In this document: positions 12,507 through 58,840 of the stretch, piece after piece
How positions within the stretch are numbered: position 1 is the first letter of the stretch
Layout: each line of letters starts with the position of its first letter
Assembly: GCA_964291285.2 (NCBI GenBank)
Contig: OZ219786.1
Span: 1,056,001-1,120,000, forward strand
Length of the DNA stretch: 64,000 nt
Reading direction: 5' to 3'
DNA from: Alphaproteobacteria bacterium
GTDB lineage: Bacteria; Pseudomonadota; Alphaproteobacteria; Bin95
Notes under the pieces: model-generated
The model's database searches: none
Seen by the model: only the letters and a program-made list of their open reading frames with translations
What the model was told of the DNA's origin: nothing
Made by a program: the position numbers and the translations under genes

Positions 12507-12732
12507 ACTTCCGGGGACGAAACGGCGGGCGCCGGTCGTCTTTCCTCCATCAGTCCAGAAGCCCGCCCGCCCGGAGCCGGTCCAGGAAATGCCGCCAGGG
12601 CAGCAGGTCGAAACGAGCCGAATCCGGAATGGTCTGGTTGGCAAGCCTGCCGGAGTCCGGTCCGGCCGGAGCGGTGCCGAAGGGATGCGACAATATCGTT
12701 CATGAAATTTAGGTAATATTTCTCCTTTCAGG

Positions 12733-13176
12733 GCTTGCATCTGATAAAACAGTGATATGATAGGTCCGAGGTAAGCGGAGTCCGCGCGGACCGCTTCCCG
12801 CCCGCGCCGGCCCGGTGCGGAACGACCCCGATTCAGCCGACAGGCGAAGTGCGTCCTGCGCCTGCCTCGCGCGCGGGCAATCAGGCGCGCGAACCGCGCC
12901 GGCGCCGACACCCGCCCGCGCCGGCACAGGCGCCCGCGCAGGATACGCGCGAATAGGGGTCGCTCCGATGCCGGTACGGCATGGCCGTCGAACCGAAACG
13001 GAATGAAGGAGCCGCACATGACATTTCCCGACCCGACCGTCGCCCTCTCCACCCGCCAGGAAGCCTTCTGCCGCCACTACACAGCCTCGACCGGCTCCAG
13101 AGGACCGGCTTCTTCAACCCGCCCGGAGACGTGGAGTTCACCCCCGACCATGACAAAACATGACATTCCATGACAC
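12733..13176 (+). repeat. Copy A of a dispersed TerS-like element (promoter, conserved leader, deleted ORF, triple heptamer end)
   Basis: Colinear with the reverse complement of 53908-55234; 46 nt identical (12877-12922 vs 55052-55097) and 36 nt identical (13141-13176 vs 53908-53943). Confidence 0.9.
13018..13173 (+). pseudogene. Internally deleted terminase-small-subunit-like gene
   Basis: MTFPDPTVALSTRQEAFCRHYTAS matches the N-terminus of 53921-54910 (VALSTRQEAFCRHYTAS); the C-terminal PDHDKT* follows in another frame. Confidence 0.85.
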
Positions 13177-13191
13177 GGCGCGAAGGGTCAT

Positions 13192-13222
13192 CGTCGCCCC
13201 GGACCCCGATCCGGGGCGACGG
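13192..13222 (+). other. GC-rich hairpin right after element copy A
   Basis: CGTCGCCCCGGA / TCCGGGGCGACG inverted repeat; no U-tract. Confidence 0.45.
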
Positions 13223-13371
13223 CGGGGAGAAGCGCATCGTCCGGCCGGGGCGGGAACCGGCTCTCAAACACCGTTATGCCGGGACAGGGCTTCACATCGG
13301 CGCGCTGGATTCGCGCCGCCGGTTCCGGTTTACTTTGGCGCGGCAGCGGAACGGAGGCGGCGGCGGACCCC

Positions 13372-17942: not shown

Positions 17943-19421
17943 GGGCTGGGAGAGGGGTGGCGCACAGTTCCCTGTCGCCGGCGCGCGTTTGCGCCAGCGG
18001 CGGGACTTTTACAAACTCGCCCGGTTCTCGGAGGAGCCGCCCATGCTCGCCAACCTGCGGAACGAGAAGCGGCCGCCCTATACACGCGAAACCTTCTGGG
18101 CGGACCTGAGGGCCAGCATTACGCTCGCGGCCTCCAATGTCCCCACCACGATGGCGCTTGGCGTCATTTCCGGAATGGGAGCCCTCGCGGGGCTCTGGTG
18201 CGGCGTGATAGTCGGGATCATCGCGGCGCTGTTCGGCGGCACGCGCGCGATCGTAAGCGGCGCGAGCGCCGTACTCGCGGTCATCACCGCAACGCTGCTC
18301 ACGGGCAACGAGTTCACGCTGGCGGAGCTTGCCGTCATCATCATCATGGCCGGGGCCATCCAGATCGCGCTCGGGCTTGCCGGCGTCGGCCGCTTCGTCT
18401 CCTACATGCCGCATATCGTGCTCGCGGGGTTCATGTCGGGCATCGGCGTGCTCCTCCTCTGGACGCAGGTGGAGAAGCTGGTCCATCTGGGCATAAGCAA
18501 CCTCGCCGTAGCGGGCGTCTGCCTGGTGCTGCTGCTTGCCTGGCCGGCCCGCGTCGGCAAATTCCTGCCGGCGGCGCTTGCGGTCATCGCCATCGGCTGG
18601 CTCTTGGCGCAGTTCCTGCCCGGCGTTGAGCGGCTGGGGCCCGTACCGACGGGACTGCCGGTTCCCGTCCTGGAGATGCCGCCGCTCGCCTTCCTGCCCG
18701 AAGCCGTCGGACCGGCGGTGCTGGTTGCGCTCATCAGCTCGATCTACACGCTGATGTGGGCACTCATCGCCGACAGCTTCACCGGCGGGCAGCACAATCC
18801 CAACCGCGAGCTGTTCGGCGTCGGCCTCGGGAACCTGGCGGCTGGAATCCTCGGCGTCATGCCCGGAGGGGCGACCATCGCCACCATGACGTCGCGCCGC
18901 TTCGGTGGGAAGACCGTCGTCGCGAGCATAATCTGCATGGTCATCGTCGCGGTGCTCATCCTCGGCCTCGGCCGGTATGTCGCGCCGCTTCCGCTCGCGG
19001 CGCTCTCCGCCATCGTCATGCTCGTCGGCTGGAAGATGATCGACTTCTCCTTCCTGCGGAAGGTGCCCCGAATGGACCCGCGGCACTCTACGGTCATGCT
19101 GCTCATCATGGGCGTGACGATCTTCGTCGATCCGCTCTTCGCCATCGTCTTCGGCGTCATCGCCGCGAATATCGTCAGCGCTACGCAGCTGGAATCGCTG
19201 GAGCTCGACAGCGTGATTTCCACACCGCTTCTCGACGCCACTTTCGATGCGGAATCGTCCGATGACTACACCGCACGCATAGGCCTGCTGGCCTTCCGCG
19301 GTTCGTTCACGGTGTCGTCGTCGCGCAAGCTGATCCGCCTGATCGGCGACGACATCCGCGACCATGAGGTCGTGATTTTCGACCTGTCCAACGCCACCCA
19401 TATCGACGACAGCGCCGCTAA

Positions 19422-21435
19422 CCCGACTTCCGCAACTCGGCTTGAGAATCGACTGATTTGACGGTTTTCCGGCGCGAGAAGTGTCGGATTTCGGTGCAGT
19501 ACCTCTCGGGACCGGCTTGTAGTGCCGACCTACCCCCTTGATCGGGCTGGCGAAGATCCGGACGCTGCGCTGATGTTCGTGCGCTGCAAGAGACGCTTCA
19601 AGGACGGCAAGGAGCACCGCTACTGGAGCGTTGTGGAGAACGTCCGGGTCCACGGCAGTCGGGTTGTTCAGCGTCAGGTGCTCTATCTCGGGGAGATCAA
19701 CGACAGCCAGCGAGCGGCGTGGTGCCGCTCGATCGAGGTGGTGGAGGGCAAGTCGCGATCACGGCAGATGGCGCTGTTTCCCGAGGACCGGGAGGCGCCG
19801 GCGCTGACTTGCGAAGTGGTGAAGATCGACCTCTCGCAGGTGGCGCTTCACGACCCGCGCCAGTGGGGGGCGTGCTGGCTGGCGCTGTCCTTGTGGGACC
19901 GCCTGGACCTGGACCGCTTCTGGGAAGAGCGGCTGCCGGCGAGCCGGCAAGGCACGCGGTGGCTGGACATCCTGAAGATCCAGGTCTGCTACCGGCTGAT
20001 CGACCCGGGCAGCGAGTGGCGCCTTCACCGTCACTGGTATGAGCACAGCGCGCTTCGCGATCTTCTGGGTGGCGAGCGGGCGATCGCCGACGACACACTC
20101 TATCGCTGTCTCGACAAGCTGCTGGCGCACAAGCAGGGCTTCTTCTCGTTTCTGCGCGACCGCTGGGCGACGCTGTTCGAGGCGCGCTTCGACGTGCTGC
20201 TCTACGACCTGACCTCGACCTACTTCGAGAGCGATCCGCCGTTCGATGACAAGCGCCGCTTCGGCTACAGCCGGGACAAGCGGCCCGACTGCGTGCAGGT
20301 GGTGATCGCCCTGATCGTTACGCCGCAGGGCTTTCCGCTGGCCTATGAGGTGATGCCGGGCAACACCTCCGACGACACCACGCTGGCGGCGTTCCTCAAG
20401 AAGATCGAGGATCAGTATGGCCGCTCCGAGCGGGTGTGGATCATGGACCGCGGCATCCCCACCGAGGAGACGCTGGCCGCGATGCGCGAGGGCGAGGCGC
20501 CGGTGCGCTACCTGGTGGGCACGCCCAAGGGCCGGCTGACGCGGCTCGAGAAGGTGTTCCTGGGCCTGCCCTGGCAGGAGGTGCGCCAGTCCGTGACTGT
20601 CAAGCTTCTGGTCGAGGATGGCGAGCTCTACGTCCTGGTGCGCAGCGAGGGGCGGCAGGTGAAGGAACGCGGCATGCGCCGGCGCCGGCTGAAGAGGCTG
20701 TGGCGTCGATTGGCCGAGTTGCAAGGGCAGTCGAACAGCCGGGATCAGTTGTTGCTCAAGCTCGGCGCCGCCAGGAAGGAGGCCGGCCGGGCCTGGAGCC
20801 TGGTCGACATCACCGTGCCCGGGACCGACAGCGAACTCGCCGCCAACGGCTTCTCATTCCGCCTGCAGCGCGACCGGCTGCGCCAGGTCCGCCGCCGCGA
20901 GGGCCGTTACCTGCTGCGATCCAACATGGTCGCCGAAGACCCCGCCACGCTGTGGCATCTGTACATGCAGCTCGTCGAGATCGAGCAGGCGTTCAAGGAA
21001 CTCAAGCACGACCTCGCGATCCGCCCCATCTTCCATCAGCGCCAAGAGCGCATCGAGGCGCATATCTTCGTCTCGTTCATCGCCTACTGCCTGCTGGTGA
21101 CCCTGAAGAACCTCGCCCGGCCGCGCGCCCCGGGCCTCACCCCACGCGCCATCCTTGAGGCCTTCGCCACCATCCAGATGGTGGACGTCCATCTGCCAAC
21201 CACCGACGGCCGGCACCTCGTCCTGCCGCGCCACACCCGGCCGAACAAGGAGCACGAGCTACTGCTGCAACAGCTCGGCATGACCTGGCCGCAGCAACCC
21301 GCACCCCGGATCTCCGCCTGACGGCACACGGCGCCGCCTCTCCGTTCGCCGCCTTGTAGTGCCGACCCTCGGGGAGACGATCAAGGCTATTCAATGAGTT
21401 AGCATCCTCATGACCCCCGAGTTGCGGAAGTCGGG
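19422..21435 (+). mobile_element. IS1634-family element, copy 1 (2014 bp)
   Basis: Terminal IRs CCCGACTTCCGCAACTC / GAGTTGCGGAAGTCGGG; flanking CTAA duplication (19418-19421, 21436-21439). Confidence 0.93.
19573..21321 (+). CDS. IS1634-family DDE transposase
   Basis: YDLTSTYFE, GYSRDKRPDC, WIMDRG, IEQAFKELK, RIEAHIF motifs. Confidence 0.93.
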   Translation: MFVRCKRRFKDGKEHRYWSVVENVRVHGSRVVQRQVLYLGEINDSQRAAWCRSIEVVEGKSRSRQMALFPEDREAPALTCEVVKIDLSQVALHDPRQWGACWLALSLWDRLDLDRFWEERLPASRQGTRWLDILKIQVCYRLIDPGSEWRLHRHWYEHSALRDLLGGERAIADDTLYRCLDKLLAHKQGFFSFLRDRWATLFEARFDVLLYDLTSTYFESDPPFDDKRRFGYSRDKRPDCVQVVIALIVTPQGFPLAYEVMPGNTSDDTTLAAFLKKIEDQYGRSERVWIMDRGIPTEETLAAMREGEAPVRYLVGTPKGRLTRLEKVFLGLPWQEVRQSVTVKLLVEDGELYVLVRSEGRQVKERGMRRRRLKRLWRRLAELQGQSNSRDQLLLKLGAARKEAGRAWSLVDITVPGTDSELAANGFSFRLQRDRLRQVRRREGRYLLRSNMVAEDPATLWHLYMQLVEIEQAFKELKHDLAIRPIFHQRQERIEAHIFVSFIAYCLLVTLKNLARPRAPGLTPRAILEAFATIQMVDVHLPTTDGRHLVLPRHTRPNKEHELLLQQLGMTWPQQPAPRISA

Positions 21436-21651
21436 CTAATCTGCTGGCTCTGCTCATCGACCGGGCGAAACAGACCGGCACGCAGATCGTCATGGTCGAC
21501 GCGAGCGACCGTGTCCGAAAAACCCTCTACGCCTTCGACGTCCTCGACCGGATTCCCGACGACCGGATTGTCGGGACCCCGGAGGAGGCCCGGGACCTGG
21601 CCTGGTCGCTGCTGTAGACGCCTTCCGCGCCGCAATGCGCCGGCGGGTCGA

Positions 21652-38545: not shown

Positions 38546-38633
38546 TTGCTTGACTCGTCCCCGGCGATACTATCCACTTTCCGCTCGTCAACACCTCGGC
38601 ATGCGGCAAATTGCGCCGCCATGTCTTGGCTAA

Positions 38634-40647
38634 CCCGACTTCCGCAACTCGGGGGTCATGAGGATGCTAACTCATTGAATAGCCTTGATCGTCTCCCCGA
38701 GGGTCGGCACTACAAGGCGGCGAACGGAGAGGCGGCGCCGTGTGCCGTCAGGCGGAGATCCGGGGTGCGGGTTGCTGCGGCCAGGTCATGCCGAGCTGTT
38801 GCAGCAGTAGCTCGTGCTCCTTGTTCGGCCGGGTGTGGCGCGGCAGGACGAGGTGCCGGCCGTCGGTGGTTGGCAGATGGACGTCCACCATCTGGATGGT
38901 GGCGAAGGCCTCAAGGATGGCGCGTGGGGTGAGGCCCGGGGCGCGCGGCCGGGCGAGGTTCTTCAGGGTCACCAGCAGGCAGTAGGCGATGAACGAGACG
39001 AAGATATGCGCCTCGATGCGCTCTTGGCGCTGATGGAAGATGGGGCGGATCGCGAGGTCGTGCTTGAGTTCCTTGAACGCCTGCTCGATCTCGACGAGCT
39101 GCATGTACAGATGCCACAGCGTGGCGGGGTCTTCGGCGACCATGTTGGATCGCAGCAGGTAACGGCCCTCGCGGCGGCGGACCTGGCGCAGCCGGTCGCG
39201 CTGCAGGCGGAATGAGAAGCCGTTGGCGGCGAGTTCGCTGTCGGTCCCGGGCACGGTGATGTCGACCAGGCTCCAGGCCCGGCCGGCCTCCTTCCTGGCG
39301 GCGCCGAGCTTGAGCAACAACTGATCCCGGCTGTTCGACTGCCCTTGCAACTCGGCCAATCGACGCCACAGCCTCTTCAGCCGGCGCCGGCGCATGCCGC
39401 GTTCCTTCACCTGCCGCCCCTCGCTGCGCACCAGGACGTAGAGCTCGCCATCCTCGACCAGAAGCTTGACAGTCACGGACTGGCGCACCTCCTGCCAGGG
39501 CAGGCCCAGGAACACCTTCTCGAGCCGCGTCAGCCGGCCCTTGGGCGTGCCCACCAGGTAGCGCACCGGCGCCTCGCCCTCGCGCATCGCGGCCAGCGTC
39601 TCCTCGGTGGGGATGCCGCGGTCCATGATCCACACCCGCTCGGAGCGGCCATACTGATCCTCGATCTTCTTGAGGAACGCCGCCAGCGTGGTGTCGTCGG
39701 AGGTGTTGCCCGGCATCACCTCATAGGCCAGCGGAAAGCCCTGCGGCGTAACGATCAGGGCGATCACCACCTGCACGCAGTCGGGCCGCTTGTCCCGGCT
39801 GTAGCCGAAGCGGCGCTTGTCATCGAACGGCGGATCGCTCTCGAAGTAGGTCGAGGTCAGGTCGTAGAGCAGCACGTCGAAGCGCGCCTCGAACAGCGTC
39901 GCCCAGCGGTCGCGCAGAAACGAGAAGAAGCCCTGCTTGTGCGCCAGCAGCTTGTCGAGACAGCGATAGAGTGTGTCGTCGGCGATCGCCCGCTCGCCAC
40001 CCAGAAGATCGCGAAGCGCGCTGTGCTCATACCAGTGACGGTGAAGGCGCCACTCGCTGCCCGGGTCGATCAGCCGGTAGCAGACCTGGATCTTCAGGAT
40101 GTCCAGCCACCGCGTGCCTTGCCGGCTCGCCGGCAGCCGCTCTTCCCAGAAGCGGTCCAGGTCCAGGCGGTCCCACAAGGACAGCGCCAGCCAGCACGCC
40201 CCCCACTGGCGCGGGTCGTGAAGCGCCACCTGCGAGAGGTCGATCTTCACCACTTCGCAAGTCAGCGCCGGCGCCTCCCGGTCCTCGGGAAACAGCGCCA
40301 TCTGCCGTGATCGCGACTTGCCCTCCACCACCTCGATCGAGCGGCACCACGCCGCTCGCTGGCTGTCGTTGATCTCCCCGAGATAGAGCACCTGACGCTG
40401 AACAACCCGACCGCCGTGGACCCGGACGTTCTCCACAACGCTCCAGTAGCGGTGCTCCTTGCCGTCCTTGAAGCGTCTCTTGCAGCGCACGAACATCAGC
40501 GCAGCGTCCGGATCTTCGCCAGCCCGATCAAGGGGGTAGGTCGGCACTACAAGCCGGTCCCGAGAGGTACTGCACCGAAATCCGACACTTCTCGCGCCGG
40601 AAAACCGTCAAATCAGTCGATTCTCAAGCCGAGTTGCGGAAGTCGGG
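38634..40647 (-). mobile_element. IS1634-family element, copy 2 (2014 bp, inverted)
   Basis: Same IRs as copy 1; CTAA duplication at 38630-38633 and 40648-40651. Confidence 0.93.
38748..40496 (-). CDS. IS1634-family transposase
   Basis: Protein matches copy 1 except HGSR versus HGGR. Confidence 0.93.
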   Translation of the reverse strand: MFVRCKRRFKDGKEHRYWSVVENVRVHGGRVVQRQVLYLGEINDSQRAAWCRSIEVVEGKSRSRQMALFPEDREAPALTCEVVKIDLSQVALHDPRQWGACWLALSLWDRLDLDRFWEERLPASRQGTRWLDILKIQVCYRLIDPGSEWRLHRHWYEHSALRDLLGGERAIADDTLYRCLDKLLAHKQGFFSFLRDRWATLFEARFDVLLYDLTSTYFESDPPFDDKRRFGYSRDKRPDCVQVVIALIVTPQGFPLAYEVMPGNTSDDTTLAAFLKKIEDQYGRSERVWIMDRGIPTEETLAAMREGEAPVRYLVGTPKGRLTRLEKVFLGLPWQEVRQSVTVKLLVEDGELYVLVRSEGRQVKERGMRRRRLKRLWRRLAELQGQSNSRDQLLLKLGAARKEAGRAWSLVDITVPGTDSELAANGFSFRLQRDRLRQVRRREGRYLLRSNMVAEDPATLWHLYMQLVEIEQAFKELKHDLAIRPIFHQRQERIEAHIFVSFIAYCLLVTLKNLARPRAPGLTPRAILEAFATIQMVDVHLPTTDGRHLVLPRHTRPNKEHELLLQQLGMTWPQQPAPRISA

Positions 40648-40667
40648 CTAATACGGGAGGATCCGGA

Positions 40668-45039: not shown

Positions 45040-45483
45040 TCAGACGATAGTCCGGTCGCCGAGCCGGCGGACGGCCCCGGAGAACACGGCCACGGTCTCG
45101 CCATCCTTCTCGCGCACCTCGACCGCATACATGCCGGTGCGTCCCGCATCCGCCTGTTCCCGCGCCTCGGCCAGCAGGAGGCGGCCCGGCCGGCCCGGAC
45201 GCAGGAAGGTGATCGAGCAGAACTGCGCGACCGAGACCCGGTTGCGGCTGTTGCTCGCGAAGGCCATGGCGGAATCGGCGAGGGAGAAGATATAGCCCCC
45301 GTGACAGACCCGGTGGCCGTTCAGCATCTCCTCGGTCACCGGCATCGACATGCGCGCCCAGCCGGCGCCGACGGCCTCCAGGCGGATGCCGAGATTCCGC
45401 GACGCATCGTCCTCCGCATACATGGCGTCGGCGACGCGCCGGGCCAGTGCATCGGCAGCCCCCGTCGTCCGCCCCGCGTCCAT
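45040..45483 (-). CDS. PaaI/PaaD-like hotdog-fold thioesterase
   Basis: MLNGHRVCHGGYIFSLADSAMAFASNS. Confidence 0.88.
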   Translation of the reverse strand: MDAGRTTGAADALARRVADAMYAEDDASRNLGIRLEAVGAGWARMSMPVTEEMLNGHRVCHGGYIFSLADSAMAFASNSRNRVSVAQFCSITFLRPGRPGRLLLAEAREQADAGRTGMYAVEVREKDGETVAVFSGAVRRLGDRTIV

Positions 45484-46685
45484 CAGTGCGCGGCCTCGAA
45501 TTCGTGGATGTAGTCCCGCGTTTCCGGCACCGCGTCCGGGTCCTTCGCAAGCTGGATCTGGAACACGGTCACGATGTTGTTGAGGAACCCGACCTCGCAT
45601 GAGGTGAGGTAGAACTCCCACATCCGGCAGAACCGTTCGTCATACATCTCCCGCGCCCGGTCCCAGTTCGAAACGAAACGGGTCCGCCACGCCCTCAGCG
45701 TCTTCGCATAGTGGCGCTTCAGAACCTCTATGTCCGTCACAAGCAGGTGCTGCTCCTCTATCGCCGGCGTCAGCTCCGAAAGCGTCGGCAGATAGCCCCC
45801 CGGGAAGATATAGCGGGTGATCCACGGGTTGACCGGACCAGGCGTGTCATAGCGGCCGATGGTGTGCACAACCGCAACGCCGTCATCCGTCAGCAGCTCC
45901 CGGAGCTTCCCGAAAAACTCCCGGTAGTGCGCCAGACCCACATGCTCCAGCATCCCCACCGAAACGATCCGCTCATAGCGGCCCGCCTCCTCCCGGTAGT
46001 CCTGGAGCCTGAAACGCACACGCTCCGACAGGCCCGCTTCCGCCGCGCGCGCATTCGACAACTCATGCTGCTCGTGGCTCAAGGTCACGCCCGTCACATC
46101 CACATCCGCCTGCTCCGCCAGGTAGAGCCCGAGCCCGCCCCAGCCCGAGCCGATGTCCAGAACACGGTCCCCCGAACGCAAAAGCAGCTTCGCCGCCAGA
46201 TGCGTCTTCTTCCGCCGCTGCGCCGTCTCGATATCGTCATTGTCCGACGCGAAATAGGCGCAGGAATACTGACGGTCGCTGTCCAGGAACAGGTCGAAAA
46301 GCTCCGGCTTCAGGTCGTAGTGGTGCGAGACCTTGCGCCGCGCCGACCCAACCGGATTGTGCGTACGAAGACGCCCCGCTGCCTTCCGCACGAAGTCCAG
46401 AAAACGCGAATCGCTCTTGAGCCTCGCGCGGCGCTGATTGACGAGGGCGATGGTGAGGAAGTCGAACAGCGTGCCGTCCTCGACCGTCAGCCGCCCGTCC
46501 ATATAGGCCTCGCCCACCGCAAGCGCCGGGTTGCGGAACATGGCGCGCGAAACCGAGGAGTCGTGCAGGCGGACAGCGGCCGACGGACCGCCCGCGCCTT
46601 CCAGCCTGTGTCTGCCCCCTTTCGGGTCGATAACGGTCAAAGTGCCGATTTCGACGAAACGGCGCAGAAACGGCAGATACAGCAT
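45483..46685 (-). CDS. cfa: Cyclopropane-fatty-acyl-phospholipid synthase family methyltransferase, paralog 1
   Basis: HHYDL, QYSCAYF, VLDIGSGWGG, IVSVGMLEHVG, YIFPGG, RMWEFYL. Confidence 0.9.
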   Translation of the reverse strand: MLYLPFLRRFVEIGTLTVIDPKGGRHRLEGAGGPSAAVRLHDSSVSRAMFRNPALAVGEAYMDGRLTVEDGTLFDFLTIALVNQRRARLKSDSRFLDFVRKAAGRLRTHNPVGSARRKVSHHYDLKPELFDLFLDSDRQYSCAYFASDNDDIETAQRRKKTHLAAKLLLRSGDRVLDIGSGWGGLGLYLAEQADVDVTGVTLSHEQHELSNARAAEAGLSERVRFRLQDYREEAGRYERIVSVGMLEHVGLAHYREFFGKLRELLTDDGVAVVHTIGRYDTPGPVNPWITRYIFPGGYLPTLSELTPAIEEQHLLVTDIEVLKRHYAKTLRAWRTRFVSNWDRAREMYDERFCRMWEFYLTSCEVGFLNNIVTVFQIQLAKDPDAVPETRDYIHEFEAAH

Positions 46686-46735
46686 GGCCGCGCCCTCCCC
46701 GGCTTTCCGGCCGCGTCACGCCTGCCGGGCGCCGG

Positions 46736-47938
46736 TCAATGCGCGGCCTCGAATTCGTGGATGTAGTCCCGCGTCTCCGGAACGGCGTCCGGGTCCTTCG
46801 CAAGCTGGATCTGGAACACGTTGAGCTCCTTCGACAGGAAGCCGACCTCGCAGGCGGTGAGGTAGAACTCCCACATCCGGCAGAACCGCTCGTCATACAT
46901 CTCCCGCGCCCGGTCCCAGTTCGAAACGAAACGGGTCCGCCACGCCCTCAGCGTCTTCGCATAGTGGCGCTTCAGAACCTCTATGTCCGTCACAAGCAGG
47001 TGTTGCTCCTCTATCGCCGGCGTCAGCTCCGAAAGCGTCGGCACATAGGTGCCGGGAAAGATGTAGCGCAATATCCACGGGTTGACCGGGCCGGGCGTGT
47101 CATAGCGGCCGATGGTGTGCACAACCGCAACGCCGTCATCCGTCAGCAGCTCCCGGAGCTTCCCGAAAAACTCCCGGTAGTGCCCCAGGCCCACATGCTC
47201 CAGCATCCCCACCGAAACGATCCGCTCATAGCGGCCCGCCTCCTCCCGGTAGTCCTGGAGCCTGAAACGCACACGCTCCGACAGGCCCGCTTCCGCCGCG
47301 CGCGCATTCGACAGCTCATGCTGCTCGTGGCTGAGCGTCACCCCCGTCACGTCCACATCCGCCTGCTCCGCCAGGTAGAGCCCGAGCCCGCCCCAGCCGG
47401 AGCCGATGTCCAGAACACGGTCCCCGGGGCGCAGCAGAAGCTTCGCCGCCAGATGCGCCTTCTTCCGCCGCTGCGCCGTCTCGATATCGTCATTGTCCGA
47501 CGCGAAATAGGCGCAACTGTATTGCCGGTCGCTGTCCAAGAACAGGTCGAACAGCTCCGGCTTCAGGTCGTAGTGGTGCGAGACCTTGCGCCGCGCCGCG
47601 CCCACCGGGTTGTGCGTGCGAAACCGGTTTACGGCCTTCCGGGCGAGGTCCGCAGGTCCCTTGGTGCGCCCGAGATGCGCCTCGCGCCGGTTCACCACCA
47701 GAATGGTCAGGAAATCGAACAGCGTGCCGTCCTCGACCGTCAGCCGCCCGTCCACATAGGCTTCGCCCACCGCAAGCGCCGGGTTGCGGACGAGTGCCCG
47801 GCTCACCGAGGAATCGTGCAGGCGGACGGTAGCCGAGGGCCCGCCCGCGCCCTCGACGCTATGCGTGCTTCCGCGCGGGTCGATTACGGTCAGCCGACCG
47901 AATTGGACGAGCCGGCGCAGAAACGGCACGAACAGCAT
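46736..47938 (-). CDS. cfa: Cyclopropane-fatty-acyl-phospholipid synthase family methyltransferase, paralog 2
   Basis: Same motifs; tandem near-duplicate, also 400 aa. Confidence 0.9.
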   Translation of the reverse strand: MLFVPFLRRLVQFGRLTVIDPRGSTHSVEGAGGPSATVRLHDSSVSRALVRNPALAVGEAYVDGRLTVEDGTLFDFLTILVVNRREAHLGRTKGPADLARKAVNRFRTHNPVGAARRKVSHHYDLKPELFDLFLDSDRQYSCAYFASDNDDIETAQRRKKAHLAAKLLLRPGDRVLDIGSGWGGLGLYLAEQADVDVTGVTLSHEQHELSNARAAEAGLSERVRFRLQDYREEAGRYERIVSVGMLEHVGLGHYREFFGKLRELLTDDGVAVVHTIGRYDTPGPVNPWILRYIFPGTYVPTLSELTPAIEEQHLLVTDIEVLKRHYAKTLRAWRTRFVSNWDRAREMYDERFCRMWEFYLTACEVGFLSKELNVFQIQLAKDPDAVPETRDYIHEFEAAH

Positions 47939-52578: not shown

Positions 52579-52729
52579 GCGGGTTTCCCCGGCCACCTTC
52601 CGGATTCGCGGATCCGCCAGGGCCGGCTTCGTGTTGCGCGGCACCCTCCCGGTGGAGTGGGCCCCTGGTCTCGGACAGTTTTGTTGTAGGAAATTGACAG
52701 GTGCGCGGTCATTGGAAGGATCGACGCCG

Positions 52730-53080
52730 ATGAGGAAGCACCGCACGCACAGCATGGCCTTCAAGCGCCAGGTCGTTGAGGAGTATCTGGCAGGCGAGAC
52801 GTTTTACGGTCTGGCCCGCCGTCATGACCTGTCTCGCACCCTGATCCGGCTGTGGCTGGAGAAGTATGAGGCCGGGGCCTTCGATGAGGAGGCCGAGGCG
52901 GCCGACAGGCTCCGGGCATATGAGGCCCGGATCGCGACGCTCGAACGGCTGGTCGGCCGGCAGGCCGCGGAGCTGGAGTTCCTAAAGGGGGCTTTGCGGC
53001 AAGGACGGCGGTCGAGGCGCGCGCCCATGTCCGTGATCGCCGGCCCCGAGGCCTCTCCGTCGCCGAAGGATGCCGACTGA
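52730..53080 (+). CDS. IS3 OrfA (HTH)
   Basis: HSMAFKRQVV...LARRHDLSRTLIRLW; candidate slippery site CTAAAGGGGG near 52982. Confidence 0.88.
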   Translation: MRKHRTHSMAFKRQVVEEYLAGETFYGLARRHDLSRTLIRLWLEKYEAGAFDEEAEAADRLRAYEARIATLERLVGRQAAELEFLKGALRQGRRSRRAPMSVIAGPEASPSPKDAD

Positions 53081-53874
53081 TGGGGATCGCGCGCTCCACC
53101 TGTTACCGCGAGCCGCAGAGCCCGGTCGACGACACCGCCCTGGTCGAGGCGATGCACGAGATCAAGGACGAGTTCGAGGCCTATGGCTGGCGGCGCATGC
53201 AGGCGGAACTTCGCCACCGGGGCCGGACCGTCAACCACAAGAAGGTCAGGCGGCTGATGCGCGAACACGCCCTGCAGCCGCCGCGCAAGCGCCGCTTTGT
53301 CGCCACCACGGACAGCGGCCACGACGGGCCGGTCTTCCCGGACCGGTCCCGGGACTGCGAGGTCGAGGGCCCGAACCGGCTCTGGGTCGCCGACCTGACC
53401 TACATCGCCATCCTGGACGGCTTCGTCTATCTGGCGGCGGTCATGGACGCCTGGTCGCGCCGCATTGTCGGCTACGCGCTCGGGCAACGCATCGACGCGC
53501 GCCTGACGCTCGCGGCGCTCGACAAGGCGATCGGGAACCGAAGCCCTCAGCCCGGCTGCATCCACCACTCCGACAGGGGCTCGCAATACGCCGCCCATGC
53601 CTACCGGACCCGGCTCGACAAACACGGGATGGTCGGCTCCATGGGACGACGAGCCAACCCCTACGACAACGCCATGATGGAGAGCTTCATGAAAACCCTG
53701 AAGGTCGAGGGCGTCTATCCCATGGCCTTCGAGACCGCCGAAGACGTCGCAAGGCAACTGCCGCGCTTCATCGACAGCTACAACCACAGACGCCTGCACT
53801 CCGCGCTCGGATATCTGAGCCCAAACCGCTTCGAGGAAAAACAACATCGCAACCCTGTCAAAAATGCCGCTTGA
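53080..53874 (+). CDS. IS3 OrfB (rve DDE integrase core), probably expressed by -1 frameshift
   Basis: WVADLTY, HHSDRGSQY, DNAMMESF, RLHSALGY. Confidence 0.92.
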   Translation: MGIARSTCYREPQSPVDDTALVEAMHEIKDEFEAYGWRRMQAELRHRGRTVNHKKVRRLMREHALQPPRKRRFVATTDSGHDGPVFPDRSRDCEVEGPNRLWVADLTYIAILDGFVYLAAVMDAWSRRIVGYALGQRIDARLTLAALDKAIGNRSPQPGCIHHSDRGSQYAAHAYRTRLDKHGMVGSMGRRANPYDNAMMESFMKTLKVEGVYPMAFETAEDVARQLPRFIDSYNHRRLHSALGYLSPNRFEEKQHRNPVKNAA

Positions 53875-53907
53875 AACTGTCCGACCCAAGGGGCCCACTC
53901 CACGGAA

Positions 53908-55234
53908 GTGTCATGGAATGTCATGTTTTGTCATGGTCGGGGGCGGAACCGGCGTTCTCCGGGCCGGTCCTCCGCTTCTTCCCCTTCTTCTTTTTCTGCT
54001 TCTTCCCCCTCGCCGCCGGTCCGCTCCAATCGTCGTCTTCGTCGCCGCTCCGCTCTTCCCGTTCGAGGCGGTCCTGCCTGCGTTCCTCGACCTCCTCCGG
54101 GGCCCAGGGGTCGTAGATGTCGTCGTAGCCGTTGCGGCGCTGGTAGAGCCAGTCATGTTCGGCGCCGTCGGCCCGGTCGTCGTCGGTGCTGTCCTCGTGG
54201 CCGGGCGTGTCGGCAGCGGCCCAGGGGCAGTATTCGTAGGTTTCCTCGGGCGGGTCGTCGGCCGGCGGCAGGTCGTTTGCCGGCGCGGGCGGGGGGCCGA
54301 AGCCGAAGGGCAGGCGGGTGCGCTCCTCGACGGCCGCGGCGAGCCTGCGGGCGGCCTCCTCATGCGCGGCCCCGTCGAAGCCCTCCTGCGCCTCCATCTC
54401 CTCGCGCCGCTCGCAGTGGCGGGCGAGCGCTCGTTCGGCCCGGTCCCGCCCCCGGCGCACGGCGTCTGCGAGCGGTCCGGGCTCGGTGCCGGTCTCCTGC
54501 GCCTCGCCCGCTTCGATCTCGCCGAACTCGTCCTCGTGCGGCAGCGGCCAGAGGCGGGCCCGGTTCGCGCCGGCCGGACTGACAAGCCCGGCGATCTCGG
54601 CCTGGAAGCGCAGCACCCGCAGCATCATGTAGGCCGAGCCGCTGGCGACGGCGGCGTCCCAGGCCTGCTCCGAGCGGGCGAGCAGGATGCGGGCCTCGTT
54701 GCGTTCGGTGCGCCGCCACGACAGGCGGATGCGGCGCACGCGCTCGACGATCCAGGGCCGCTCCAGCAGGGCGCATCCGGTCTGGCGGGCGGAGCGCTCC
54801 GAATATCCGGCCTGCCTTGCGGCGTGTGCGGCATTGCCGGAGGCGGTGTAGTGGCGGCAGAAGGCTTCCTGGCGGGTGGAAAGCGCGACGGCGGGCTCGA
54901 TGACGGGCATGGGGTGCGGGTCCTTTCGTTCCGCTGGCGTTCGACAGGCAGGCCCGGCAGCGGTACGGGACCGCGCCGGGCCGGGAGGGCGGCGTTGACG
55001 GGCAGCGCCGCCCCGTCGGGGAGCGACCCTGTTTCGCGCGTATCGCGTGCGGGCGCGGGCGGGTGTCGGCGCCGGCGCGGTTCGCGCGCCTGATTGCGCG
55101 CGCGAGCCAGAGGGCGCACTTCGCCTGTGCGTCGAATCGGGGTCGTTCCGCGCCGGGACAGCGCGAAGGGAAGCGGTCCGCGCGGACTTCGCCTCCCTCG
55201 GACCTATTCTAGCACATTTTCCTAGAATGCAAGC
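53908..55234 (-). repeat. Copy B (full length) of the dispersed TerS-like element
   Basis: Homologous to 12733-13176 in promoter, leader, ORF start and 36-nt end. Confidence 0.9.
53921..54910 (-). CDS. Orphan terminase-small-subunit-like HTH protein with acidic and Lys-rich tail
   Basis: LSTRQEAFCRHY...GNAAHAARQAGYSERSARQTGCALL resembles the Terminase_2 N-terminus; GAAAGGA RBS. Confidence 0.75.
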   Translation of the reverse strand: MPVIEPAVALSTRQEAFCRHYTASGNAAHAARQAGYSERSARQTGCALLERPWIVERVRRIRLSWRRTERNEARILLARSEQAWDAAVASGSAYMMLRVLRFQAEIAGLVSPAGANRARLWPLPHEDEFGEIEAGEAQETGTEPGPLADAVRRGRDRAERALARHCERREEMEAQEGFDGAAHEEAARRLAAAVEERTRLPFGFGPPPAPANDLPPADDPPEETYEYCPWAAADTPGHEDSTDDDRADGAEHDWLYQRRNGYDDIYDPWAPEEVEERRQDRLEREERSGDEDDDWSGPAARGKKQKKKKGKKRRTGPENAGSAPDHDKT

Positions 55235-55280
55235 TCTTTTCGGGAACTATTTCAAATTTATTCCTGCTTATTCTCAAGGA

Positions 55281-56222
55281 TCATCCTGCAATGAGTAGTT
55301 GATATGGGATGGGTTGTGTTCTGACGGCGCTGTGAAGGAAGCGTGGGATCATGGAGTTGAGTTGGTATCGTCGGTTGTATCGCCATGCGAAGCTGGCGAG
55401 GTAGCGTTCGGCATGGTCGGGACCGAGCTTTCGGTAGGTTCCGGCGATGGCGCTCTTGATGTTGCCGAGGGTCGTGTTGACCCATTTGAAGGGGGCCATG
55501 CGGGCTGCCCGGCGGCCTGAGCCGGTACGGATGGCGCTGTGGCTTGCGGCGATGCCGTCGAGGGCGTTCCAGCAGTGCAGGGCATCGGTGACGACCTCCG
55601 TCCCCGGGGCCAGCCAGCGTTTGGCGCCGCGCGCGATCTCGCGCTTGCGGAAGCCCCTGACCGGGACGAGCTTGACCTTGCGCGGAGCCCCTTCGGCGCT
55701 GGTCGAGACCGCCGCCACGAAGGGCGTCTTGCCCGGCGCGCCCCGGCCGCGCTTGCCGCCGGAGCGCGACCCGCCGAGATAGGCGTCGTCCATCTCGACC
55801 CGTCCTTCGAGCCGCGTGTCGGCTTCGCGCCGGGCCATCACCGCCATGATCTTCTGCTTCATGCTCCAGGCGGTCGGCTGCCTGACCCCGAGGCGGCGAC
55901 CGAGTTCCACCGACGAAATGCCGTTCTTCGCCGTCACCACAAGGTGGATCGCCGCAAACCACAACGTCAGGGGCAGCTTGGTCGAGTGGAAGATCGTCCC
56001 CGACGTCACCGAAACCTGCTTCTTGCAGCGGTTGCACTGGTAAAGCCTGCGCCCGGCAAGAATGCAGTGCCCCCGATGCCCGCAGGAGCCGCACTCGAAA
56101 CCGTTCGGCCAGCGCAATCGGGCTAGCACCGCCCGGCACTGATCCTCCGTGCCGAACGACGCTCGGAACGCATCGTCGCTCAAGCCACGAACACGCGATG
56201 CAACCTTGAATGCCATATCCAT
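55281..56222 (-). CDS. IS1595-family transposase (DDN type)
   Basis: Zn ribbon CGSC...CNRC, SVTSGTIF, VEMDDAYLGG, VVTD, WVNTTLGNIK, YLASFAWRYNRR. Confidence 0.92.
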   Translation of the reverse strand: MDMAFKVASRVRGLSDDAFRASFGTEDQCRAVLARLRWPNGFECGSCGHRGHCILAGRRLYQCNRCKKQVSVTSGTIFHSTKLPLTLWFAAIHLVVTAKNGISSVELGRRLGVRQPTAWSMKQKIMAVMARREADTRLEGRVEMDDAYLGGSRSGGKRGRGAPGKTPFVAAVSTSAEGAPRKVKLVPVRGFRKREIARGAKRWLAPGTEVVTDALHCWNALDGIAASHSAIRTGSGRRAARMAPFKWVNTTLGNIKSAIAGTYRKLGPDHAERYLASFAWRYNRRYQLNSMIPRFLHSAVRTQPIPYQLLIAG

Positions 56223-56364
56223 GACCTCCCGATAACAGAAACCCTTCCAAACCTACAATCTCACAAGATGACTCTCAAGAATAGGGGATTATAGGGCTAG
56301 CTAGCCAAAAGTGTTGACATTCGCCGGACCTTCTGTCAGATTGGCAGCGTCGATGGAGGCAGAC

Positions 56365-57315
56365 ATGGCAAACTCTCCCGGAAAGTCATACCGCAAGGGC
56401 ATCAGCCTGATTGAACTGGCCGAGATGTTCCCGGATGAGGACGCGGCCAAGCGGTGGTTCGAGGAACAGCGCTGGCCGGATGGAGTGCGGTGCGCGCACT
56501 GCCAGTCCGACCGGGTTTCGGCCTGCAAGGACGCGAAGCCCATGCCCTACCGCTGCAAGGACTGCCGGAAGCATTTCAGCGTCCGCACCAAGTCGGTCAT
56601 GGCCGAGTCGCCCTTGCCGCTCCGCAAGTGGGCGTTCGCCATCTACCTTTGCGCCACGAACCTCAAGGGCGTGTCGAGCATGAAGCTCCACCGCGACCTG
56701 AAAATCGCGCAATCGTCGGCATGGTTCGTCGCGCATCGCATCCGCGAAGCACTGGACGGCGATTACGGCCTGCTTGCCGGGCCGGTGGAGGTCGATGAGA
56801 CCTACATGGGCGGCAAGCGCAAGAACATGCCGGCGCGCAAGCGCAAGGCGCTGCAAGAGGCCGGAGCGGGCCGGGGAACGGTCGGCAAGGCCATCGTCGC
56901 CGGGGCGAAGGATCGGGAGACGGGCAAGGTATCGGCCCGCGTCATTGAGGATACGACCAAGCCGACGCTGCAAGGCTTCGTCCGCGACACCGCCGCGCCG
57001 GGCGCAACGCTCTACACGGATGAGCATGGCAGCTACACCGGAATGCCGGAATACGCGCATGAAGCGGTCAATCATGGCGTCGGCGAGTATGTCCGGGAGA
57101 TGGCGCATGTGAACGGCATGGAATCTTTCTGGAGCATGTTGAAGCGGGGCTATCAGGGAACCTTCCACCACTTCTCCGCGAAGCACCTGCAACGCTATGT
57201 CAACGAGTTTGCGACCCGGCAGGGTCTCCGCCCGCACGACACGGAAGCGATGATGGGCGAGATTGCCGCCCGGATGATCGGCCGCCGCCTCACCTATGCG
57301 CGGTTGACCTCGTGA
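56365..57315 (+). CDS. IS1595-family transposase (DDE type)
   Basis: RWPDGVRCAHC, YRCKDC, VEVDETYMGG, LYTDE, HVNGMESFWSMLKR. Confidence 0.93.
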   Translation: MANSPGKSYRKGISLIELAEMFPDEDAAKRWFEEQRWPDGVRCAHCQSDRVSACKDAKPMPYRCKDCRKHFSVRTKSVMAESPLPLRKWAFAIYLCATNLKGVSSMKLHRDLKIAQSSAWFVAHRIREALDGDYGLLAGPVEVDETYMGGKRKNMPARKRKALQEAGAGRGTVGKAIVAGAKDRETGKVSARVIEDTTKPTLQGFVRDTAAPGATLYTDEHGSYTGMPEYAHEAVNHGVGEYVREMAHVNGMESFWSMLKRGYQGTFHHFSAKHLQRYVNEFATRQGLRPHDTEAMMGEIAARMIGRRLTYARLTS

Positions 57316-58256
57316 GCGCCGTTGTCACGGTCCCTCCGACCGACAAGACACCGGAGGAAATCGCTCAAACGCTCTTCCACGGGCAGAACCGCGCCCGGAC
57401 GACCTTGTATCCCGGCGACTGCCGTGAAGTGCTGGCGGACATGGCGGATGAGAGCGTTCACCTTGTCCTCACGGACCCGCCCTATTTTCTCGACCGGCTG
57501 GATGACGGCTGGTGCCCGGATGACATCGAGCGGTCCAAGCGGAACGCCGACGTCGTGGGTGGCCTGCCTATCGGTATGCGCTTCGACCGGGAGCAAGCGA
57601 AGAACCTGCAAGCGTTTCTGGAGCCCGTCGCGGTCGAGCTTCTGCGCGTCCTGAAACCGGGCGGGTTCCTTCTGCTGTTCGCCGCGCCACGCCTCTACCA
57701 CCGCGCCGCCGTTGCAATAGAGGACGCGGGCTTTGAGGTCCGGGACGCCTTCGCATGGCACTTCACGAAAAAGGCGCAGTTCAAGGCGTTCACGATGGAC
57801 CATTTCGTCAAGCGTCGGGCCGACATGACGGCGGCACAGAAAGCCGACGCGCTTAAGTCGCTGGACGGGCGCCGGACCCCGCAGCTCCGCCCGCAGTTCG
57901 AGGCGATCCTATTCGCACAGAAGCCCCGAGAAGGGACTTTCGTCGATAACTGGCTGGCGCACGAGACCGGCCTTATCGACCCGCGCCACAGCCTGACGGC
58001 GCGCGTTCCTGAAACCGTCATGACGGTCGAGAAGGAAGCGAAGGGACGCTTCAACGGGCATCTGACGCCGAAGCCGGTCAAGCTCTGCGAGCATCTCATC
58101 CGGCTGTTCTCTGCCGAGGGCCAGACCGTGCTTGACCCGTTTGTTGGCTCTGGCACGACATGCCTTGCCGCGCGTCGGACCAAGCGCCGAAGCATCGGCA
58201 TCGACATCAACCCCGCCTACATCGACATCGCCCGCAAGCGGCTGGAGTCGCGGTGA
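57312..58256 (+). CDS. DNA N4-C/N6-A methyltransferase, beta class
   Basis: TDPPY (motif IV) precedes HLTPKP and VLDPFVGSGTT (motif I). Confidence 0.92.
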   Translation: MSAVVTVPPTDKTPEEIAQTLFHGQNRARTTLYPGDCREVLADMADESVHLVLTDPPYFLDRLDDGWCPDDIERSKRNADVVGGLPIGMRFDREQAKNLQAFLEPVAVELLRVLKPGGFLLLFAAPRLYHRAAVAIEDAGFEVRDAFAWHFTKKAQFKAFTMDHFVKRRADMTAAQKADALKSLDGRRTPQLRPQFEAILFAQKPREGTFVDNWLAHETGLIDPRHSLTARVPETVMTVEKEAKGRFNGHLTPKPVKLCEHLIRLFSAEGQTVLDPFVGSGTTCLAARRTKRRSIGIDINPAYIDIARKRLESR

Positions 58257-58840
58257 TGGCCGTCCCTCCGCTGGAGAAGCGCCACGGGCACCGGGGCGTT
58301 GCTCATCTGCGCGTCGCGGTCATGGAGGTCCTGTATGCCGCGAAGAAGGCCGGAGAGTGCCTTGGAGCGGCTGGCATAGGCCGTCGAGCGGGCATCTTCC
58401 GTGAACCCGGCTATGCGGTGAAGCAGGGCAACGACTACATCGTGACGGGCGTCCTCAACTCCCTGGTCAAGGACCGGCTGCTGACGAAATGCACCCAGGC
58501 CAACAGGCGGCCGGGTTGGGAGCTTACCGACGCAGCGTTTCAGCGTCGGGATCAGGAAGTCACGGAAATGCCGGATTGGGGCGGCGACAAGCGCATCATC
58601 GACGCCTACCGGCTGAAGCAATGGGGATTCTGCCCCGGCTGCCTTGCGGTGTTGCCGGAGCGCCCCGACGTCGACCATATCCGGGCGAAGGCGCGAGGCG
58701 GTTCAGACGAGGCGGAGAACAAGCAATTGCTCTGCCCGAACTGCAACCGCCGGCGCGGTGCTAAGCCGTTCGCGCAATTCCTCGCCGAGCGGCTGGAGGA
58801 CGGAAACGAGTGGACCGATTACGAGCCAGAGGATGGCTAG
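58256..58840 (+). CDS. HNH endonuclease with N-terminal helical/wHTH-like region
   Basis: TGATG overlap with the MTase; CPGC...DVDHIRAKARGGSDEAENKQLLCPNCNRRR. Confidence 0.85.
   Translation: MAVPPLEKRHGHRGVAHLRVAVMEVLYAAKKAGECLGAAGIGRRAGIFREPGYAVKQGNDYIVTGVLNSLVKDRLLTKCTQANRRPGWELTDAAFQRRDQEVTEMPDWGGDKRIIDAYRLKQWGFCPGCLAVLPERPDVDHIRAKARGGSDEAENKQLLCPNCNRRRGAKPFAQFLAERLEDGNEWTDYEPEDG

Follow-up and report, generated by a model that had tools for sequence, protein, structure and literature searches.

What is a lone gene for a protein resembling the small subunit of phage terminases (TerS) doing inside a short, repeated stretch of a bacterial genome, and how has that stretch multiplied? The question is raised by positions 53908-55260 (minus strand) of a 64,000-nucleotide piece of an alphaproteobacterial genome (contig OZ219786.1, positions 1,056,001 to 1,120,000; hereafter the window), where a promoter-like site is followed by a leader, a ribosome-binding site (RBS), an open reading frame (ORF) of 329 amino acids and a triple of short direct repeats. 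A preliminary description, made from the window alone, had noted a second copy and proposed a multi-copy, non-autonomous selfish or regulatory unit, possibly a cassette that hijacks phage packaging or a domesticated TerS gene with a cis-acting RNA. We find that the unit belongs to a family of about 100 loci spread over all five contigs, and all replicons, of the 6.1-Mb assembly from which this DNA comes (G000; contigs C1 etc.). With moderate confidence, we read it as a selfish, gene-converting mosaic repeat family, in which the TerS-like protein would bind the phased repeats and master coding copies are accompanied by derivatives resembling miniature inverted-repeat transposable elements (MITEs), with no recognisable transposase.

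The long copy of the window lies between two insertion sequences (ISs). Its promoter-like site (55206..55232) reads TTGCAT-N15-TGnTAGAAT, with the -35 box TTGCAT at 55232-55227, a 15-nt spacer, a TG at 55214-55213 and the -10 box TAGAAT at 55211-55206; the AT-rich 5′ remnant upstream of it (55233..55260) is truncated by one of the two ISs. A simple sigma-70 scanner called no promoter in either window copy, because the -35 box matches at three of six positions and the spacer is 15 nt; in 29 aligned loci of other genomes TTG and TGnTAnnAT are kept at this position and the spacer is variable. A GC-rich leader of about 290 nt (54911..55199) runs from the transcription start predicted from the -10 box to the ATG, and contains an invariant 24-nt core, GCAATCAGGCGCGCGAACCGCGCC, at 55074..55097 and, in its 3′ part, GAAC-N8-GAAC followed by the RBS AAAGGA. 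The TerS-like ORF (53921..54910), with the N-terminus MPVIEPAVALSTRQEAFCRHYTAS, extends into three CATGACA heptamers spaced 10 nt apart (CATGACAAAACATGACATTCCATGACA; 53909..53935), which form the 3′ end of the unit and contain the stop codon of the ORF (..PDHDKT*). Because the spacing is 10 nt, each of the three frames contains a TGA overlapped by an ATG (as ATGA), and every ORF type of the family consequently ends in ..HDKT, ..HDIP or ..HDIS. Neither the list of ORFs nor Pfam revealed a large terminase, portal, capsid, integrase or transposase inside the unit, in agreement with the preliminary description. An Arg-rich upstream frame that crosses the core (..RARNQAREPRRRR..) was rejected as coding sequence, since the core shows no variation at any codon position and the variable hairpin beside it contains indels of lengths not divisible by three.

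The second window copy, on the plus strand (12690..13190, the 5′ limit being approximate), is an internally deleted short form whose AT-rich 5′ end carries TTCATGAAAT. It keeps the promoter (-35 at 12735-12740 and -10 at 12756-12761), the leader with its core (12877-12900) and the first 24 codons from the ATG at 13019, and then jumps at a junction near 13079 to the last ~95 nt, which leaves a 51-aa frame and the triple (13149-13175). The 36-nt ends of the two copies are 100% identical (13141-13176 on the plus strand and 53908-53943 on the minus strand), and their leaders and ORF starts share blocks of 58-70 nt at 80-97% identity. The window contains exactly two instances each of the 24-nt core and the triple CATGACA-N3 motif, and 100 dinucleotide-preserving shuffles yielded neither. 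The short copy has a glutamate-synthase small-subunit gene and an acyl-CoA dehydrogenase gene as neighbours. The initial picture of two copies with one architecture, on opposite strands and in unrelated contexts, holds for their presence and placement but not for the completeness of the second copy; as a measure of family size, two is a large undercount.

Searches of G000 with the unit gave 67 DNA matches, or 163 high-scoring pairs when a longer query was used, which were grouped into 107 loci with unit pieces. Ten of these are near-full copies, with unrelated flanks, and eight of the ten contain an intact 329-aa ORF; tblastn with the protein returned eight N-terminal fragments, eight ORFs that span residues 1-329 (93-100% identity) and two whose C-termini diverge (1-297 and 1-271). 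The invariant 24-nt core has 89 copies, which were counted with the best-conserved 66-nt stretch of the leader, and the triple occurs 111 times by regular expression (114 times with at most one mismatch). The unit is a dispersed, multi-copy one, as had been supposed, and is not limited to the two copies of the window.

Members of the family share a common order of parts: an AT-rich end, the promoter, a hairpin directly after the predicted start, a variable leader, the invariant core, a variable GC hairpin, ATACGCGCGAAA, an ORF-type-specific part with the RBS, the ORF and the phased CATGACA heptamers, which number three or more. At least four kinds of content are found at the ORF position, the first being the TerS-like gene. 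The second encodes an acidic protein of 190-240 aa that starts with MTATDPRP and has no Pfam family and 155 database relatives, and the third is a mini-ORF of 31-41 aa starting with MPKT. In one unit (L049, C3:1747445-1748446 of G000), an isochorismatase-domain gene (PF00857, E 3e-25) occupies the exact place of the TerS-like ORF, between leader core and triple. Unit sizes range from 0.25 to 1.35 kb, with 28 units of less than 460 nt having both leader core and triple, and some units contain two or three extra segments of ~200 nt, each closed by another triple.

The TerS-like protein and the leader

The only Pfam match of the protein at E ≤ 1 is Terminase_2 (PF03592; residues 11-70, 45.3 bits against a cut-off of 26.1, E 1.8e-11). 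The terS families of PHROG match residues 8-65, and a profile of 27 homologues compared with the Protein Data Bank (PDB) identified the DNA-binding domain of SF6 G1P (E 1.4e-4). The AlphaFold model has a mean pLDDT of 62, with values above 90 for residues 11-60, and contains three short helices followed by helices at 52-90 and 93-106, with further ones at 146-199, 250-260 and 271-288 between low-confidence stretches. The first ten Foldseek matches listed are all small terminases. The isolated domain aligned with 4zc3 at a TM score of 0.85 and a root-mean-square deviation (rmsd) of 1.5 Å, with 41% identity over 56 residues; for the whole chain the best match is the full-length TerS 3zqq (E 4.8e-3), but with an rmsd of 17 Å. 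The TerS-type helix-turn-helix (HTH) N-terminus supposed in the preliminary description is borne out by these searches: residues ~8-65 form an SF6/SPP1-type HTH DNA-binding domain, long helices span 52-106, and the remaining C-terminal part, conserved and rich in acidic and aromatic residues, is modelled mostly with low confidence. Residues beyond 70 have no sequence family match in Pfam or PHROG, the ESM Atlas gave scores below 0.85 for the C-terminal part and for the acidic protein that forms the second cargo, and PADLOC and NCBIfam returned no match for the TerS-like protein. A complex prediction with four copies of residues 1-112 scored 0.19 against a mark of 0.42, which counts neither for nor against a ring.

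The 27 homologues have many invariant positions up to about residue 280. All eight intact paralogues are 987 nt long and free of stops, with dS of about 0.1 and dN/dS of 0.11-0.47 in 28 pairs, and dN/dS is alike in all three thirds of the protein. By these comparisons, the ORF is under purifying selection and the part beyond residue 110 is no random filler. The term non-autonomous suits the short forms but not the full copies, which carry an intact ORF under selection.

The suggestion of a cis-acting RNA was weakly borne out. The leader folds at -154 kcal/mol (minimum-free-energy z of -2.4, with 3 of 200 shuffles as stable), and a consensus structure of 31 sequences has 32 pairs, seven of which show compensatory change, with a covariation term of -0.99. 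No Rfam 15 family matched at gathering score in the whole window or at E ≤ 1 in 53850-55300. Conservation of the leader lies mostly in sequence blocks, and the leader may equally well act as DNA or as RNA.

Spread of the family within and between genomes

Four loci, one on C1, two on C2 and one on C3, have exactly the same deletion junction, which arose at a short ACAGC microhomology; the short copy of the window is one of the four. A second deletion class, with a larger remnant, recurs at several loci. The simplest account of the shared junction is that a defective copy was itself copied. Between long copies, tracts of at least 93% identity extend from a point 82-175 nt before the core, no earlier than the predicted transcription start, to the triple, and the promoter parts fall into several diverged types; the window long copy and a copy on C4 have an ORF dS of only 0.013, yet different 5′ ends. 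These tracts and the diverged promoter types make the copies mosaics, which implies frequent gene conversion or recombination at the conserved core. The units show no preferred orientation downstream, 29 lying on the same strand as the next gene and 31 on the opposite strand (60 scorable among the 72 triple-bearing copies); for upstream neighbours the corresponding numbers are 31 and 21 of 52. Replication strand shows no bias either: of 42 scorable copies, 24 have the unit sense on the G-rich strand.

Unit DNA was found in 13 of the 16 other genomes of the genus, and the other genera of the sample gave only two marginal matches (E ~1e-3). Triples number 114 in G000, 101-190 in G005, G006, G009, G011 and G015, and 77 in G012; G008 has 13 and G001, G003 and G013 have none. 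No TerS-like gene was detected by profile search in the last four genomes. The abundance of short units tracks the presence of the gene, with 77-190 triples in the seven gene-bearing genomes. In 20 genomes of two sister genera triples are absent, and a reversed-pattern control gave zero throughout.

Comparison of individual sites indicates both change and stability. At one locus (L007) G000 has 1,699 nt between the flanking genes, where G002 has 49 nt and G009 has 19 nt; G006 is occupied, and G005 contains 851 nt of unrelated DNA with small ORFs at the site (L135, G005:C55:37962-38812). By these alignments, gain or loss at unit-bearing sites is real. Both G002 and G006 are occupied at the position that corresponds to the L002 locus. 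A 20-kb stretch contains three units, one of which is also occupied in G002; in five relatives this stretch shows contig breaks or occupied sites, and the insertions that differ are other genes or a different small repeat. The short copy of the window lies at a synteny break, its two flanking genes being far apart in every relative. No relative contains a counterpart of the left flank of the L003 locus, and when flank pairs joined elsewhere were sought in the genome itself, only further members of the family came up.

Beyond the genus, the protein family comprises at least 332 clusters in a large protein collection, which, where named, are called terminase small subunit of uncultured Alphaproteobacteria, and of 153 candidate stretches in species-representative genomes, 109 contain a gene for a relative. 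The 80 loci listed all come from metagenome-assembled genomes labelled Alphaproteobacteria or Rhodospirillaceae bacterium, some with names that point to sponges. Public runs sharing words with the unit mostly carry sponge, coral or marine metagenome labels, those with small shares having been examined in part. On this basis the family is limited to a clade of Alphaproteobacteria that are uncultured and associated with sponges and corals. The 24-nt core is found within five substitutions at 53 of the 80 listed loci and at none of the 17 most distant (45-64% amino acid identity). Distant genes have a short 5′ untranslated region, with the promoter and GAACA-N6-GAACA just before the RBS, and lack the long leader; many of them stop inside CATGACATTTCATGA. 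They are still multi-copy, with six paralogues in one genome at 85-90% identity over 0.85-1.3 kb. The distant set keeps promoter, TerS-like gene and phased repeats, and these therefore form the old core of the unit, the long GC-rich leader being a later addition in this genus. We also observed that distant relatives (L109-L120) are flanked by other dense small palindromic repeats, CCGTCATTTCGACCGGAGC..GCTCCGGTCGAAATGACGG and GTAGGGGAGGGTTTCAAACCCTCCCCTAC.

A plasmid collection contained no match to the unit. Coral metatranscriptome contigs (Logan) show 85-90% identity over parts of the ORF, which is no proof of transcription, and Logan contigs of a run labelled viral metagenome include short and long family members together with ordinary IS DNA of the same bacteria; seen as contigs, the virome and RNA runs offered nothing decisive. 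A depth spike at 53944-54017 was discarded as a signal, as it falls on a low-complexity run of lysine codons. A full-text literature search, judged from titles and the openings of abstracts, returned no description of such an element.

Competing explanations

In the selfish-family reading, the TerS-like protein would bind the 3′ phased heptamers, which lie one helical turn apart, and the related TGTTCATG and GAACA motifs near the promoter, much as G1P of the phages SPP1 and SF6 binds repeated boxes around its own gene. Such binding would mark the unit ends and probably autoregulate the unit, and units would be copied and homogenised in trans by duplicative movement, gene conversion or both. 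Cutting and joining would come from outside the unit, by host recombination, another nuclease or a phage terminase. Several observations weigh against this reading. The unit encodes no transposase or recombinase catalytic domain (Terminase_2 is the only Pfam match, and PADLOC and NCBIfam gave nothing). As in the preliminary description of the window copies, no clear terminal inverted repeat or target-site duplication (TSD) was found: no TSD was seen in the copy alignments, and the ends show by eye a weak inverted match of 10 of 12 positions, TGTTCATGAAAT at the 5′ end against the reverse-complemented 3′ end, TGTCATGGAAT. The 5′ boundary is ill-defined, with some copies sharing repeats further upstream. 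Genomes of relatives offered no clean empty site; the extra DNA at L007 exceeds the unit, with 166 nt of it unique in the genome and no clean boundary, and a deletion or recombination hot spot would account for this locus just as well. For at least two loci, other species are occupied at the corresponding position, so that many insertions must be old, and the mosaic tracts could stem from ordinary homologous recombination between paralogues. Finally, the compared genomes are related and not independent, which makes the co-occurrence of gene and short units weaker than the counts suggest.

The mosaic tracts and same-site occupancy across species fit a plainer explanation, in which the units are ordinary paralogues of TerS-derived regulators or nucleoid proteins, duplicated together with their regulatory region, the short units being pseudogenes that are immobile today and subject to gene conversion. 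The missing catalytic domain and the purifying selection on the ORFs agree with this, and the GAACA-N6-GAACA between -10 box and RBS of the distant genes looks operator-like. We nevertheless consider it doubtful, given that about 100 loci with unrelated flanks occur on all replicons, that one deletion form is found at four of them, that unrelated ORFs, the isochorismatase gene included, are framed by the same leader and triple, that genomes with the gene contain 77-190 copies against 0-13 in those without it, and that many contig breaks of draft genomes fall at units. A further reading concerns phage packaging. If a small-terminase-type protein and pac-like repeats are taken at face value, the ~100 sites and 8-10 TerS genes might serve as genome-wide packaging starts for the terminase of an incoming phage or particle, spreading the element and host DNA by hijacked headful packaging, with copying within the genome dependent on terminase or recombination and not on a transposase; a selfish element of such a new kind is possible, though we would not expect it. 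The narrower proposal that the units act as distributed packaging or transduction sites, each a pac-like site with its own TerS that recruits an incoming large terminase, leading to headful packaging of neighbouring host DNA from ~100 sites, horizontal transfer of units and host genes and perhaps a lower phage yield, strikes us as unlikely. It draws on the TerS-type DNA-binding domain, whose best structural matches are full-length small terminases, on the phased repeats at the gene's own end (a link kept down to 45% amino acid identity), on selection in all eight intact ORFs and on the relatives in viral-metagenome-labelled contigs, from a run that also holds IS DNA. The match to TerS by sequence is limited, however, to the N-terminal 60 residues, PADLOC had no match, and neither the multiplication within the genome nor the other ORFs between the same leader and repeats would be explained. 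The hijack first put forward found no direct support in the genome: G000 has no Terminase_6N gene, and its sole large-terminase gene (C2:89785-91365) is present in 4 of 17 genomes of the genus, from which it follows that the TerS-like family is independent of a conserved resident terminase. A resident gene transfer agent was rejected as a general partner on the same grounds. That large terminase belongs to a small phage-like module (C2:85300-96900; L131, L132), which a DDE transposase gene interrupts and which also has genes for an HNH endonuclease, capsid-like and portal-like proteins and an integrase of the P4 type.

Mobilisation by a transposase encoded elsewhere, for example by an IS3-family IS or one of the IS200/IS605 type, would make the units non-autonomous elements, and copies of an IS3-family IS do lie next to many triples. 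One such IS of 1,250 bp lies in the window at 52653..53902 (plus strand), 5 nt beyond the last heptamer, between CCG duplications at 52650-52652 and 53903-53905, and the tail of the unit resumes beyond it, from 52649 downwards. Six of the eight full copies in G000 (98.9-100% identical) lie 5-7 nt past a triple, in either orientation of the IS, and the other two are also inside family units; 16 of the 72 triple-bearing copies have TGGAGTGGGCCC, resembling the inverted repeat (IR) of this IS, within 24 nt after the triple, solo IR-like remnants included. One distant relative (L114) has the IS3-IR-like TGGAGTGGGCCCC six nt past its repeat. On the 5′ side, an IR-like sequence was found in 1 of 89 copies, in the wrong orientation, which means that IS3 ends do not bracket the units; the association looks like target preference of the IS and not mobilisation. 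The balanced replication strand and the selection on the TerS-like ORF, which would go unexplained, also speak against foreign mobilisation, and we think it very unlikely. We give hardly any credence to a mobile promoter and start-codon donor that lands upstream of genes and drives them, its phased ATGs giving a start in any frame. The conserved promoter, the ATGs of the heptamers in all three frames and the intergenic position of the units would suit such a donor, but it is contradicted by the even orientation relative to downstream genes (29 against 31), and none of the three ATGs of the short-copy triple opens the adjoining acyl-CoA dehydrogenase frame.

No described kind of mobile element fits the unit. 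It has no IS transposase of the DDE, HUH, serine or tyrosine type, no integrase, replication or regulation module of a satellite and no orientation bias of the kind that marks single-strand elements; it has the N-terminal HTH of a small terminase without an adjoining large terminase and head genes. What it shares with MITEs is that the short copies have both ends in common with a coding copy and have themselves multiplied. G1P of the phages SPP1 and SF6 binds repeated pac boxes around its own gene. The proteins of this group (Terminase_2; PDB 4ZC3, 2CMP, 3ZQP/3ZQQ) likewise have an N-terminal HTH followed by long helices, and short repeated boxes at their own gene, but the protein of the unit is twice as long, with a conserved acidic C-terminal part not seen in TerS, and its gene occurs in 8-10 copies per genome, each with a promoter and a 290-nt leader and none with large-terminase or head genes adjoining. 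Phage satellites such as phage-inducible chromosomal islands (PICIs) and Staphylococcus aureus pathogenicity islands (SaPIs) carry TerS homologues that redirect the terminase of the helper. Each such satellite is a 5-15 kb island, present once per genome, whose genes serve integration, replication and regulation, a build that the single ORF of the unit does not share with PICIs or with P4-like, PLE or cfPICI satellites. Like them, the unit places a TerS homologue on a selfish element apart from the large terminase, but at 0.25-1.35 kb, without an integrase and about 100 times per genome. MITEs and the Correia elements of Neisseria are short, intergenic, high-copy and promoter-bearing interspersed repeats. 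The unit resembles them in having its own promoter and deletion derivatives that share ends with longer coding copies; unlike theirs, its longer copies encode no transposase, no clear terminal inverted repeat or TSD was found, and there is no orientation bias towards downstream genes. Repetitive extragenic palindromic (REP) sequences and bacterial interspersed mosaic elements (BIMEs) are targeted by the IS3-family elements IS1397 and ISKpn1. An IS3-family IS at one fixed position of a repeat is common to both cases, but the target in the unit is the tail of a phased direct repeat and not a palindromic REP loop.

If the selfish-family reading is true, a TerS-type protein as the sole conserved product of a high-copy element would be an undescribed design of selfish element; phage satellites, which come nearest, depend on an integrase and an entire island. 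These genomes are shaped by the family, which accounts for ~100 loci, lies at synteny breaks and disrupts draft assemblies, and a link to phage packaging, if there were one, would bear on the exchange of DNA among symbiont populations. The 24-nt core and phased heptamers can be used as binding probes and as lineage markers in metagenomes.

Insertion sequences and other repeats at the units

The unit family draws three different IS families to fixed positions. At the 5′ end of the long copy, an IS1595-family IS of 1,023 bp (55261..56283) cuts the unit at 55260/55261; it has 14 further copies of at least 1,001 bp in the genome, plus shorter fragments. This IS adjoins another repeat of more than 2.3 kb (56283-58600), which has three genome copies and encodes a further transposase of the IS1595 type. 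In at least six units, one and the same leader position is taken by a different repeated element, over 2 kb long, which follows ..ACGCGCGAATTAG and starts with CCCGACTTCCGCAACTCGG (C2:676537, C3:831588, C3:685904, C3:201464, C1:257868 and C3:196109). Several units are adjoined by a separate small hairpin repeat, GTCGCCCCGG..CCGGGGCGAC, which lies at 13180-13225 in the window; a version with TACCAGCGG..CCGCTGGTA ends measures 195 nt in G009 (L044) and 132 nt in G004 (L045), at a site that is empty in G000. Elsewhere in the window, a perfect inverted repeat of 2,020 nt (19419-21438 and 38631-40650) surrounds 17.2 kb and may represent two IS copies in a composite structure, and a tandem duplication at 45466-47938 has a period of 1,253 nt and 79-94% identity.

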